Source: Escherichia coli
Lineage (GTDB): Bacteria > Pseudomonadota > Gammaproteobacteria > Enterobacterales > Enterobacteriaceae
Strand: one strand, 5' to 3'
NCBI RefSeq assembly: GCF_024298765.1
Contig: NZ_CP101210.1
DNA length: 64,000 nucleotides
Part shown: positions 25,201 to 28,200 of the stretch, in pieces
Layout of the letters: each line of letters opens with the position of its first letter
Position numbering within the stretch: the stretch's first letter is position 1
Made by a program: the position numbers

Positions 25201-28200
25201 GTTATCACCGTATTAACAGGAAACCGCTTCCACTTCTAATAAGGCCAGATCTTTTTTGCGTAATACCAGGCTCACACGACGGGTTTCGATATGAATGGGG
25301 TCGCCGAGTGGAGCGACGCGCACCACATTAAAAGAGGAGCCAGGTAACATGCCAAGAGAAAGCAGTTTTTGGCGATATGCCGGGCTGATTTCACGGGAAA
25401 AGCCAGTAATTTTCCACGCAGTATCTGGAGTGTATTGCATAGGTGCCTACTTGTTTCTCATTAACTGGATAACTACCTCATGGGGCGTTTGACAGCGACA
25501 TGAGACCAGATGATTTGCCAACGAAGGAGAGATTAAATAATCAACAGTACAATGATAATGAGAATGGTTTCTATCAGCAATACTTAAAATGTGTGTGAAT
25601 GTTGGTTTGAATAATAATCTGACTCAATGTTGATATGGCTCAAGGTTATATCGCAGCGAAAATATAATTCGCATGACGAATTATTATGGCTGGTTAATGT
25701 TTAATTAAGGTTTCAGTTGTTAATGAAGTGATAAATATTAACGGGATATATTATGAGTTTGCTTGTGGAATAAAAAGGCCGGAGATATTCTCCGGCACTT
25801 TTATGTCAGGCAAGGCGTTCGTTGCCAGATGTGGCGTGAACGCCTAATCGCGCAGGTTTAGGGGCCAGTCCGGGCGTTTAACGTTTTTTGCCCATTGCCG
25901 CCGCCAGCGCATCCATCATCGCGCTATTACCGGCAGGCTGCGCTTCACGCCCACGCGGTTTGGCTGCCGGGCGGTTGTTTTGCGGGCGATCGTTACCGCC
26001 ACCGCGACGGGCGTTGGTTTCGCCAGGCTGCTCGTCCAGACGCATGGTCAGGGCGATACGTTTACGCTGAAGATCCACTTCCAGCACTTTCACCTTCACA
26101 ATGTCGCCCGCTTTCACCACGGTATGCGGATCTTCCACAAACTTGTTCGACAATGAAGAGATGTGAACCAGGCCGTCCTGATGCACGCCAATATCGACAA
26201 ACGCGCCAAAGTTGGTGACGTTGGTCACCGCACCTTCGAGGATCATACCCGGTTGCAGGTCGTTCATTGTCTCGACGCCATCGGCAAACTGAGCGGTTTT
26301 AAATTCCGGACGCGGATCGCGACCCGGTTTTTCCAGCTCTTTGATGATGTCGGTTACCGTCGGCACACCGAATTTCTCATCAGTAAAGTCAGACGCTTTC
26401 AGGTTACGCAGTTCGCTGCTGTTACCCATCAGATCTTTCAGTGCCTGCTGTGTTGCTGCCAGAATGCGTTCCACCACCGGATAGGCTTCCGGGTGAACGG
26501 TAGAAGCGTCCAGCGGGTTATCACCGTGGTTAATGCGCAAGAAGCCCGCGCACTGCTCGAAGGCTTTCGGCCCCAGACGGCTCACTTTTAACAGTTGCTG
26601 ACGGTTCTGGAACTGGCCGTTCTCATCGCGCCAGGCCACGATGTTTTGCGCCATCATGCGCGTCAGGCCCGCCACGCGGGTTAACAGAGGAACAGAAGCG
26701 GTGTTGAGATCGACGCCAACGGCGTTTACGCAGTCTTCTACTACTGCATCCAGTTTGCGTGCCAGCTGCGTCTGGCTGACGTCATGCTGATACTGACCTA
26801 CGCCGATAGATTTCGGATCGATTTTCACCAGCTCCGCCAGCGGATCCTGCAAACGACGGGCGATAGACACCGCGCCACGCAGCGAAACGTCGAGATCCGG
26901 GAATTCCTGTGCTGCCAGCTCGGAAGCCGAGTAAACCGACGCGCCAGCTTCGCTGACGATCACTTTCTGCGCGGTCACTTTCGGGAACTGCTTCTGCACG
27001 TCGAGATAGAAACGTTCGGTTTCGCGAGAAGCTGTACCGTTGCCGATCGCCACCAGTTCAACGTTATGCTTTTCACACAGCGCAGCAACGGTCATCGCTG
27101 CTTTTGCGGCCTGCCCGGTATGCGGATAAATGGTATCGGTCGCCACCAGTTTACCTGTCGCATCGACTACCGCCACTTTTACCCCGGTACGCAGACCCGG
27201 ATCGAGGCCCATCGTTGCACGCAGTCCGGCAGGGGCCGCCATCAGCAGATCGTGCAGGTTACGGGCAAAGACGTTGATTGCTTCATCTTCCGCGCGTTCG
27301 CGCACGGTGCCCATCAGTTCAGTTTCCAGATGCATCAACACCTTGATGCGCCACGTCCAGCTCACCACACCTTTGCGCCAGCTATCCGCCGGGGCATTGT
27401 TCAGGCGCAGGCCAAGGTGATCCATGATGATTTGCTCGCAATAGCTCTCTTTCGGCGGCTCTTCGAACTGCGGATCGGCATTCAGCGAAAGCTGAAGTAC
27501 GCCTTCGTTACGACCACGGAACATCGCCAGCGCGCGGTGAGAAGGCACCGTGGACAGCGGTTCGTGATGATCGAAATAGTCGCGGAATTTCGCCCCTTCC
27601 TCTTCTTTACCATTCACCACGGTTGAGACCAAATGCGCGTTCTTCCACAGATAATCACGCACTTTCGCCAGCAGCGCGGCATCTTCGGCAAACCGTTCCA
27701 TTAGGATATAGCGCGCGCCGTCCAGCGCGGCTTTGGTATCTGCCACGCCTTTATCGGCATCAACATATTGTGCAGCGGCGACTTCTGGCGTGTGTGACGG
27801 ATCGCTCCACAGCAGGTCAGCCAACGGCTCAAGCCCTGCTTCAATGGCGATTTGCCCGCGGGTGCGGCGTTTAGGTTTGTAGGGCAGGTAGAGGTCTTCG
27901 AGTTCGGTTTTGCTTAGTGTGGCGTTGATGGCATTCGCCAGCTCGTCAGTGAGTTTGCCTTGCTCGGAAATGGACTTGAGGATCGCCTGACGTCTCTCTT
28001 CCAGCTCGCGCAGATAGCTCAGGCGCGTTTCCAGATTACGCAGCTGCGTGTCATCCAGACCGCCGGTGATTTCCTTACGATAACGTGCGATAAACGGCAC
28101 GGTATTCCCTTCGTCAAGCAGGCGAACGGCAGCGTCAACCTGTTCCGGGCGCGCCTGAATTTCACCCGCAATAATGCGGCAGAACGAATCATTCATCATG

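Follow-up and report, generated by a model that had tools for sequence, protein, structure and literature searches.

The yhgF–feoA spacer of Escherichia coli as the known feoABC control region preceded by yhgF end-signals

The yhgF–feoA spacer and its conservation

We analyzed a 64,000-nt stretch of Escherichia coli DNA from contig NZ_CP101210.1 (hereafter referred to as the window) at the gap between yhgF and feoA, where the neighbouring genes all lie on the minus strand:

25878..28199, minus strand: yhgF (Tex-family protein), a 773-aa ORF (ORF list and annotation of the identical E. coli strain 104)
25878..25880, minus strand: yhgF stop codon TAA, the upstream edge of the spacer (ORF list, strain 104 annotation)
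25441-25877: feoA–yhgF spacer, 437 bp
25213..25440, minus strand: feoA, a 75-aa ORF and the first gene of feoABC (ORF list, annotation)

An earlier note on this DNA had described a region of about 440 bp upstream of feoA. The ORFs give a gap of 437 bp, as does the RefSeq annotation of E. coli strain 104, whose spacer is 100% identical; the K-12 gap is 456 bp. Of 5426 complete E. coli genomes, 5425 carry the spacer, and the yhgF-feoA neighbourhood is kept in 75 aligned Enterobacteriaceae spacers, which range in length from 256 to 745 bp. Among E. coli, the ~200 bp nearest the promoter are almost invariant, and the distal half differs by up to ~7%. The AT-rich tract reported earlier was recovered as 30–34% GC in 100-bp windows across 25500-25799, compared to 52% for the whole window.

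The conservation analysis of the spacer that the earlier note had suggested as a check showed that the blocks conserved in the 75 Enterobacteriaceae coincide with published protein-binding sites. Published K-12 coordinates give exact K-12 sequences, and these map onto the window without indels.

The yhgF 3′ end and the small-RNA question

The yhgF end of the spacer carries two features:

25813..25854, minus strand: truncated REP element in the yhgF 3′ UTR, with pairable arms AGGCGTTC and GAACGCCT (REP core match, copy number)
25768..25801, minus strand: intrinsic terminator of yhgF, AAAAGU-GCCGGAGA-aua-UCUCCGGC-CUUUUUAUU (terminator scan, folding)

The REP element, which had been overlooked before, occupies the stretch from the yhgF stop to the hairpin. 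It departs from the REP core GATAAGGCGTTCACGCCGCATC at 2 positions, and the core recurs without mismatch at 53803-53824; 0 matches would be expected by chance. The K-12 version of this stretch has a median of at least 40 matches per E. coli genome; the window copy lacks 19 bp of it (5′-truncated). The stretch agrees with the description of REP elements as extragenic, multicopy, imperfect palindromes of ~35 bp. The yhgF 3′ region that includes it is strongly structured (fold z of -5.45).

The hairpin, GCCGGAGA-ata-TCTCCGGC at 25778..25796, was already known from the earlier reading as perfect and bidirectional, and both the terminator scan and folding agree. It consists of 8 perfect pairs (6 of them G-C) around a 3-nt loop and lies 82 nt 3′ of the yhgF stop codon, not directly at it. 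Folding gave -17.7 kcal/mol (z -5.7) on the minus strand and -18.2 kcal/mol (z -6.3) on the plus strand, and the hairpin passes the terminator scan on both. On the minus strand, the GC-rich stem-loop stands directly before the U-tract CUUUUUAUU. The plus-strand tract, ACUUUUAUGU, is weaker and short, with a 4-U run only, and the plus strand looks like a terminator because an A-tract precedes the hairpin. Other genera have a different hairpin, 4–15 nt past the yhgF stop.

The REP element followed by this strong intrinsic terminator would form a first unit that stops yhgF read-through into feo. Its order (stop codon, palindromic REP, GC-rich hairpin, U-tract) is shared with other E. coli mRNA 3′ ends that combine a REP element with an intrinsic terminator. 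In contrast to the usual REP 3′ ends, the window copy is single, 5′-truncated and diverged, and K-12 RefSeq carries no repeat annotation there.

We considered whether the spacer encodes an independent small RNA, either an antisense RNA on the plus strand that terminates at the two-way hairpin, or a stable fragment of the yhgF 3′ UTR made of the REP element and terminator. The terminator-like plus strand of the hairpin and the strong structure of the yhgF 3′ region are consistent with such an RNA, as are a perfect TATAAT on the plus strand (25663-25668) and a sub-threshold Rfam match to STnc390 (plus strand, 25744-25810, E 4e-4). However, the plus-strand U-tract is short, the TATAAT has no accompanying -35, and its region is unconserved outside Escherichia. 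The promoter scan returned no promoter-like site on either strand of the spacer, compared to 1.8 expected. At 29.6 bits, the STnc390 match stays under the cut-off of 50 and reflects resemblance to the terminator hairpin; the genuine STnc390 maps to the yibD–tdh interval of Salmonella, and Northern blots did not detect it. The match to naRNA4, a REP-derived family, covers the REP stretch at 21.7 bits (cut-off, 59.5) and only mirrors the REP origin; RmaA and the other matches also fell far under their cut-offs, and no Rfam family reached threshold anywhere in the window. K-12 RefSeq lists nothing in the spacer, though it annotates nearby antisense RNAs such as asompR. A RIL-seq-derived sRNA prediction has no yhgF/feoA intergenic entry and gives feoA.5UTR an sRNA probability of 0.0003, and literature searches found nothing on an sRNA at yhgF/feoA. 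The conserved blocks of the spacer are accounted for by protein sites. We regard an independent sRNA as very unlikely.

The feoABC promoter and its Fur boxes

Nearer to feoA, the spacer holds the promoter and two groups of Fur sites:

25546, minus strand: feoABC transcription start site (K-12 U00096.3 3540057; derived from the literature ArcA spacing, mapped by sequence)
25552..25580, minus strand: core sigma-70 promoter, with -35 TTGCTG (25580..25575), a 17-bp spacer and -10 TATCAT (25557..25552) (sequence around the Park 2013 start site)
25548..25578, unstranded: main Fur box array over the promoter spacer and -10, ~-32 to -2 (consensus, Chen 2007, conservation)
25601..25631, unstranded: upstream Fur-site cluster, sense ...GATTATTATTC..., -85..-55 (consensus, Chen 2007)

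We deduced the start site from the ArcA site, which the supplement of Park 2013 places at -191..-171 of the 'mapped transcription start site'. Transcription would begin ~106 nt ahead of the feoA start codon, at a promoter that combines a weak -35 with a good -10; the TATCAT is invariant across genera. Our simple promoter scan missed this promoter because its -35 matches at only 3/6 positions. Genomic SELEX showed binding of RNA polymerase and H-NS to the yhgF–feoA spacer, and the SELEX authors proposed a rival promoter, TTATCA-15-TTTAAT, ~20 bp downstream.

The Fur-box-like sequence of the earlier note, aatgataatgagaatggtttctatc, lies on the plus strand at 25551..25575, and both cross-genus conservation and published sites bear it out. 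Compared to the consensus GATAATGATAATCATTATC, the main array matches at 13/19 (25548), 13/19 (25554) and 11/19 (25560), in registers 6 bp apart. The upstream cluster, missing from the earlier inventory, also has three registers 6 bp apart, at 11/19 each. Each match in these phased triplets is weak alone; 13/19 is reached by chance in 21% of composition-matched random 437-mers. No other stretch of the spacer is as conserved as the main array (~90–100% identity in the 75 genomes), which overlaps the -35/-10 region of the literature-derived start site. Chen 2007 predicted Fur sites of 10.9 bits at 3538059 and 13.4 bits at 3538065, corresponding to window positions 25566 and 25560, and one of 10.5 bits at 3538006 (window 25619), in the upstream cluster. 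Kammler 1993 had annotated two Fur boxes, which Chen 2007 predicted anew; the main box is among them, and the 10.5-bit site covers one of the two Kammler boxes. Fur binding in vivo at the feo region is attributed to Kammler 1993, as cited elsewhere. We accept the Fur motifs, and the FNR motif described below, because of cross-genus conservation and published binding data, not on sequence-only odds.

Fe2+-Fur on the hexamer array over the spacer and -10, and on the second cluster ~50 bp upstream, would block RNA polymerase under iron-replete conditions. Mutation of fur derepresses a feoA-lacZ fusion, and its repression by Fur was seen only in anaerobic growth, a consequence of the FNR, ArcA and OmpR inputs stacked upstream. 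With other Fur-repressed promoters (fepA, fhuA), feo shares overlapping NATWAT-type hexamers over the -35/-10 region and repression by occlusion, with a best match of 13/19. Unlike fepA and fhuA, it adds far-upstream anaerobic and envelope-stress inputs (FNR, ArcA, OmpR).

The FNR site and a possible second start

25630..25643, unstranded: FNR site, sense TTGAGCCATATCAA, centred at -90.5 from the start (consensus, K-12 ChIP-seq, conservation)

The FNR-like site that had been noted as TTGAT-N4-CTCAA (TTGATatggCTCAA, 25630..25643) holds up well. Compared to the inverted repeat TTGAT-N4-ATCAA, TTGAGccatATCAA matches at 9/10 consensus positions, which happens by chance in 5% of composition-matched random 437-mers. 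The orthologous K-12 site lies under a ChIP-seq peak (peak at 3537996, motif TTGAGCCACATCAA at 3537982; Myers 2013), and the window site differs from it by one base, in the N4 spacer. The half-sites are conserved across genera and the flanks are variable. In 69 of the 75 Enterobacteriaceae spacers, the site is centred at -90.5 or -89.5 from the -10-anchored start, with -89.5 in 19 genomes.

The -90.5 position is unusual for FNR activation. It is not that of class II (-41.5), and the class I reference is ~-61.5 plus helical repeats; -92.5, a known class I position for CRP, is close to it. FNR at this conserved near-consensus site would raise transcription without oxygen, possibly through a class I-type contact with polymerase or by counteracting Fur. 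A 2017 study reportedly found that ArcA and FNR partly counteract Fur at feoABC.

The atypical distance also raises the possibility of a second, FNR-dependent promoter, which would add to the main explanation: FNR at ~-41.5 would drive a start near 25595, under the upstream Fur cluster, and yield a leader of ~155 nt. The cluster (~25601-25631) would then lie at ~-6 to -36, the usual place of a Fur box. The Yersinia pestis operon offers a parallel: a P1 overlapping its putative FNR site has been proposed, 198-171 bp ahead of the ATG, and the E. coli FNR site has its centre ~196 bp ahead of the ATG. However, when we looked for the -10 of a class II FNR promoter 23–28 nt past the FNR site, we found AACCAA at -12..-7, which does not resemble a -10, and nothing conserved across genera. 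The promoter scan returned no upstream site, the Myers 2013 and Park 2013 supplementary tables give a single promoter and start site, and the distance that is conserved is that from the FNR site to the downstream -10. We consider this second start unlikely.

The ArcA/OmpR block

The far-upstream part of the control region comprises the following:

25717..25737, plus strand: ArcA box TTGTTAATGAAGTGATAAATA, overlapping the OmpR-shifted motif TTATCAnnnnnTTAACA, -191..-171 (K-12 ChIP, EMSA, conservation)
25692..25716, unstranded: second half of the far-upstream conserved block, sense ACTGAAACCTTAATTAAACATTAACC (conservation)
25650..25690, unstranded: fast-evolving spacer with a lineage-specific palindrome, ATAATTCG-n5-CGAATTAT (inverted repeat, conservation)

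The ArcA box, like its OmpR motif absent from the earlier inventory, contains TGTTA (25718) and TGATA (25729), 11 bp apart, and is conserved across genera. Its occupancy comes from literature ChIP: the Park 2013 supplements list a K-12 ArcA ChIP peak and a site at 3537888-3537908, -191 to -171 from the start, from which the window site differs by one base. Expression of feoABC is 3.7-fold lower in an arcA mutant. By EMSA, OmpR shifts a fragment with -294..-278 from the ATG, and activation is 2-fold (Gerken 2020). NagC is also listed as a feo regulator. ArcA on this conserved AT-rich block at ~-180 would also raise transcription without oxygen, and OmpR, which shifts the ArcA-block fragment in vitro, or constitutively active EnvZ raises feo transcription. 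For all of these sites, we observed the positions, the conservation and the fixed spacing directly; binding and the direction of regulation are taken from the literature.

The adjoining 25692..25716 reads tgtttaattaaggttt on the plus strand, with two TGTTA-like repeats 11 bp apart. Identity over the 75 Enterobacteriaceae spacers is 70–99%; the stretch is near-identical in Escherichia, Salmonella, Citrobacter, Kluyvera and Klebsiella, and Raoultella differs at a single base. Our literature searches found no published binder for these ~25 bp of the block, and the published repeat architecture suggests that they may extend the ArcA site. The neighbouring 25650..25690 has 0–50% identity across genera and is polymorphic within E. 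coli.

The feoA leader

25441..25545, minus strand: feoA 5′ untranslated leader, 106 nt including the start base (conservation profile, fold)
25452..25446, minus strand: Shine-Dalgarno-like AAGTAGG of feoA (sequence)

The leader is invariant in six divergent E. coli, and its middle is poorly conserved across genera. A short leader of 36–39 nt occurs in 10 of 65 distinct leaders (Enterobacter, Leclercia, Lelliottia, Silvania, Huaxiibacter); the leader of this Enterobacter clade is ~70 nt shorter, a segment having been lost.

We explored whether feoA translation is under the control of a leader peptide or upstream ORF, for which a 24-codon ORF with a TTG start (25521..25447), ending 6 nt before the ATG, is the candidate. 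It is intact in every Escherichia species sampled, its stop adjoins the feoA ribosome-binding site, and the sequence constancy among the six E. coli would fit a coding role. However, only 10 of the 75 genomes keep the ORF intact, and those listed are all Escherichia; Salmonella, Citrobacter, Klebsiella and Kluyvera carry a frameshift or stop in it, and the Enterobacter clade has a deletion of the region. The TTG start lacks a purine-rich Shine-Dalgarno sequence, being preceded by CTCTCCTTCG. Six small ORFs on both strands were considered, none of which is conserved beyond Escherichia; those other than the TTG ORF are intact in 0–3 of 75 genomes. No ORF in the spacer has both a ribosome-binding site and in-frame cross-genus conservation, and the K-12 annotation has no small protein there. 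Control by a leader peptide is extremely unlikely.

Another explanation is that a mid-leader stem-loop (CUCAUG...CAUGAG in E. coli) acts post-transcriptionally, on stability or as a docking site for an sRNA or protein, with conservation of structure and not of sequence. In most long-leader genera, a GC-rich hairpin of varying sequence occupies this position, and feoA.5UTR is a partner in Hfq RIL-seq data. The fold z-scores of individual leaders also lean negative (mean -1.0; 28/52 below -1), a shift that is no independent test, as the sequences are related. Against this, RNAalifold on 53 leader sequences returned no consensus pairs, and the fold of the full E. coli leader is no more stable than expected from shuffled sequence (z -0.08). 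The two Salmonella leaders have z of ~+1. The two stem changes that we read among Escherichia, Citrobacter and Salmonella both break pairs and neither is compensatory, and the segment is missing from the Enterobacter clade. We rejected a leader consensus structure on these grounds (no RNAalifold pairs, single-sequence z near zero, weak per-genus shift) and find a stem-loop function quite unlikely. A broader reading, in which the leader carries uncharacterised post-transcriptional control (an sRNA pairing site or lineage-variable stem-loop), and/or a second upstream FNR-dependent start gives a longer leader with the main Fur box as a roadblock, also strikes us as improbable.

The earlier note had allowed for an unannotated small RNA or leader peptide in the remaining non-coding space. 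With no Rfam family, promoter, conserved ORF, leader structure or K-12 annotation to back it, that suggestion is unsupported rather than disproved.

Interpretation and comparison with known systems

We read the spacer as the well-studied feoABC control region preceded by the end-signals of yhgF, ordinary and already known, with a probability of about 90%. Its length is accounted for by the REP element, the terminator and the stacked regulator sites, not by an extra gene, and our analysis adds no new element. The earlier reading of the region as feoA regulatory DNA with Fur and FNR sites plus a yhgF terminator is retained, without its hidden sRNA or leader peptide; its inventory of Fur box, FNR site, AT-rich tract and hairpin was sound and gains the second Fur cluster, the ArcA/OmpR site and the REP element. 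This promoter combines signals of iron through Fur, of oxygen through FNR and ArcA, and of the envelope or osmotic state through OmpR at one place, upstream of the main ferrous-iron importer of enteric bacteria, FeoABC, which has a role in gut colonisation and virulence.

The K-12 feoABC promoter region represents this very locus. Relative to it, the window shows a single 19-bp indel in the REP element, which is truncated, and ~5% substitutions, nearly all of them in the distal half, and it carries a lineage-specific palindrome at 25664-25684. In the Fur box, the -10, the start site and the leader, there is essentially no difference. Downstream of feoC, the window has an IS3-family element where K-12 has rpnA.

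The feoABC operon of Y. pestis (P1 over a putative FNR site, P2 Fur-repressed) has a like layout, in which a terminator is followed by an FNR-like site ~170-200 bp ahead of the ATG and then by a Fur-covered promoter near feoA. In Y. pestis, however, mutations in fnr, arcA and rstAB had no effect on feo transcription, and the upstream promoter is inferred, whereas in E. coli the binding and effects of FNR and ArcA are documented, with one recorded start site and no conserved upstream -10.

Two modest observations may be of use to specialists: the fixed distance between the FNR site and the -10 across 69/75 spacers, and the loss of ~70 nt of leader in the Enterobacter clade.

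Organization of the yhgF-feoA spacer

The 437-bp spacer between yhgF and feoA (25441-25877; 456 bp in the K-12 equivalent) is 100% identical to that of E. coli strain 104 and present in 5425/5426 complete E. coli genomes. An earlier note had read it, with exactly these boundaries, as a feoA upstream regulatory region; the observation is confirmed and its core interpretation is correct, for a region that is already known. The minus-strand genes run greB, yhgF, feoA, feoB, feoC, followed by an IS3-family element, and the K-12 RefSeq annotation holds no feature inside the spacer. 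The features used below are:

25878..28199, minus strand, yhgF (ORF list and annotation)
25213..25440, minus strand, feoA (ORF list and annotation)
25557-25552, minus strand, feoABC -10, TATCAT
17 bp upstream of the -10, minus strand, weak feoABC -35, TTGCTG
106 nt, minus strand, feoA leader, counted from the start site inferred at 25546

In the mechanical ORF list, feoB (22875-25208) starts at a GTG and encodes 777 aa, against 773 aa from an internal ATG in RefSeq. Just downstream of feoC, a position occupied in K-12 by rpnA, lies the IS3-family insertion sequence (21265-22523), with two overlapping transposase ORFs and a programmed frameshift.

Conservation of the regulatory sites

The sequence elements named in the earlier note were all found as quoted: a Fur-box-like string at 25551-25575, an FNR-like site, TTGATatggCTCAA, at 25630-25643, an AT-rich tract (30-34% GC in 100-bp windows spanning 25500-25799) and a perfect 8-bp hairpin at 25778-25796 with a terminator-like score on both strands. 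From sequence alone, the Fur and FNR motifs appear only marginally above chance, as a 13/19 match to the Fur consensus arises in 21% and a 9/10 FNR match in 5% of composition-matched random spacers. We regard both as real because of their conservation and published binding data.

We aligned the window spacer with those of 74 other Enterobacteriaceae genomes. Synteny of yhgF and feoA is kept in all 75, with spacers of 256-745 bp. Two outliers, L076 (Enterobacter sp. RIT418; 745 bp between the genes) and L071 (Klebsiella indica; 238 nt between the -10 and the ATG), suggest insertions. A profile over the full set and a 15-genus alignment show that the spacer is fast-evolving overall, with discrete conserved islands:

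Shine-Dalgarno region
25549-25581, 33 bp, near-invariant, including the Fur box of the earlier note
Two FNR half-sites, with variable flanks
25692-25740, about 49 bp, AT-rich

Spacer variation within E. coli is unusually high, with 2600 genomes sharing only 90-95% identity with the window. Almost all differences fall in the distal half (25650-25877), in the REP element, the post-terminator stretch and 25650-25690; the ~200 bp from the FNR site to the feoA ATG (25441-25645) are nearly invariant.

By hand comparison, 25718-25734 of the ArcA/OmpR site in the far-upstream island (sense TATCACTTCATTA) matches 8/9 specified positions of the IHF core consensus, WATCAANNNNTTR. The 25 conserved bp at 25692-25716 resemble further ArcA repeats and may be such.

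Published regulator sites and a model of the feoABC promoter

Published K-12 coordinates were transferred with an offset of 1978 between genome versions, which reproduced the quoted site sequences letter for letter; from the terminator to the feoA ATG, K-12 and the window differ by no indels. The FNR motif TTGAGCCACATCAA at K-12 3537982, under an FNR ChIP-seq peak (Myers et al. 2013), corresponds to window 25630-25643 with one base difference in the motif's spacer. An ArcA ChIP peak and site, TTGTTAATGAAATGATAAATA, at 3537888-3537908 (Park et al. 2013) correspond to 25717-25737; relative to the mapped start site they lie at -191 to -171, which puts that start at window 25546. In an arcA mutant, feoABC expression is 3.7-fold lower (Park et al. 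2013). In vitro, purified OmpR shifts a fragment whose motif is the ArcA sequence, and feo-lacZ expression doubles when OmpR is overproduced (Gerken et al. 2020).

Two Fur boxes were annotated by Kammler et al. 1993, as told in Chen et al. 2007, whose own model places two Fur clusters upstream of feoA. These map to ~25619 (-85 to -55) and 25560/25566. The latter is the box seen in the earlier note, at about -32 to -2 over the promoter spacer and -10; the former had been overlooked. Documented regulation includes repression of a feoA fusion by Fur and induction without oxygen through FNR and ArcA, RNA polymerase and H-NS bind within the spacer by genomic SELEX, and a NagC site is listed for the feoABC operon in the tables of two papers.

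The best-supported reading of the region is a promoter at which several signals are combined. Fe2+-Fur would occlude the -10 and spacer of the feoABC promoter and also bind the second, upstream cluster. Under anoxia, FNR at -90.5 would increase transcription, as would ArcA around -180, and OmpR, which shifts a fragment with the ArcA block, would do so when the EnvZ/OmpR system is active. The distance from the FNR site to the -10 is kept in 69/75 genomes (-90.5 in 50, -89.5 in 19), a new comparative point which argues that where the site lies relative to the core promoter is important. From -90.5, FNR could act by a class I-type polymerase contact or by antagonizing Fur. By analogy with the P1/P2 model of Yersinia pestis feo, a further class II promoter could lie beneath the upstream Fur cluster, 41.5 bp downstream of the FNR site, but we consider it unlikely: the 15-genus alignment has no -10, present or conserved, at the needed position, and the supplementary tables of Myers 2013 and Park 2013 give a single promoter and start site.

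Search for a small RNA or leader peptide

The suggestion that the spacer might also encode a small RNA or leader peptide gained no support from Rfam, promoter, ORF, structure, interactome or literature checks, and we consider it unsupported rather than disproved. Across the whole window, spacer included, no Rfam family reached threshold; the best sub-threshold match in the spacer, STnc390, was rejected as a terminator look-alike (the real STnc390 lies at yibD/tdh in Salmonella and has never been detected). A promoter scan of both spacer strands returned no candidate. The lone perfect TATAAT (+ strand, 25663-25668) is directed away from feoA, has no matching -35 and falls where conservation is lowest, being kept within E. 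coli and not in other genera.

We followed six small ORFs through the 75-genome alignment. The best, of 24 codons with a TTG start and ending 6 nt before the feoA ATG, was rejected as a leader peptide: it is intact in 10/75 genomes, all Escherichia among those listed, is broken or deleted elsewhere, and has no Shine-Dalgarno sequence.

Predicted folding of the feoA leader is no more stable than that of shuffled sequences (z -0.08), and RNAalifold found no consensus structure among feoA leaders. A mid-leader hairpin is often predicted, with sequences differing by genus and a weak statistical signal (mean z -1.0); two stem variants read in the closest relatives break pairs without compensation. 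Ten of 65 distinct leaders, all from Enterobacter, Leclercia, Lelliottia, Silvania and Huaxiibacter (genomes L040, L042, L056, L060, L063, L072, L073, L076, L077 and L081), are only 36-39 nt long and lack the ~70-nt middle segment found in Escherichia, Salmonella, Citrobacter, Klebsiella and Kluyvera. In a RIL-seq-based predictor, feoA.5UTR appears as an interactome node with an sRNA probability of 0.0003, and the yhgF/feoA intergenic region has no entry. No paper describing an RNA gene in the spacer turned up in literature searches.

The yhgF 3' end

The yhgF side of the spacer is occupied: a REP element takes up the 82 nt from the yhgF stop to the hairpin, and its core departs from the canonical REP at two positions. 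Relative to K-12, 19 bp are missing from the 5' side of this copy, and the K-12 version has a median of at least 40 matches per genome. REP and hairpin together fold much more stably than shuffled controls (z -5.45). Read on the yhgF strand, the hairpin and the CUUUUUAUU that comes after it form a standard intrinsic terminator. The hairpin looks like a terminator in both directions because an A-tract precedes the stem; on the + strand, the U-run after it is only four long. Many other genera carry a different hairpin 4-15 nt past the yhgF stop, and therefore terminator function recurs while sequence and position do not.

In E. coli EC488 (L083, a urinary isolate; NZ_CP109874.1, 3501-5549), IS1 lies right after the yhgF terminator with rtcB directly next, and the feoABC operon and promoter are absent from this position. 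Elsewhere in the window, the canonical REP core, GATAAGGCGTTCACGCCGCATC, occurs as a perfect match at 53803-53824.
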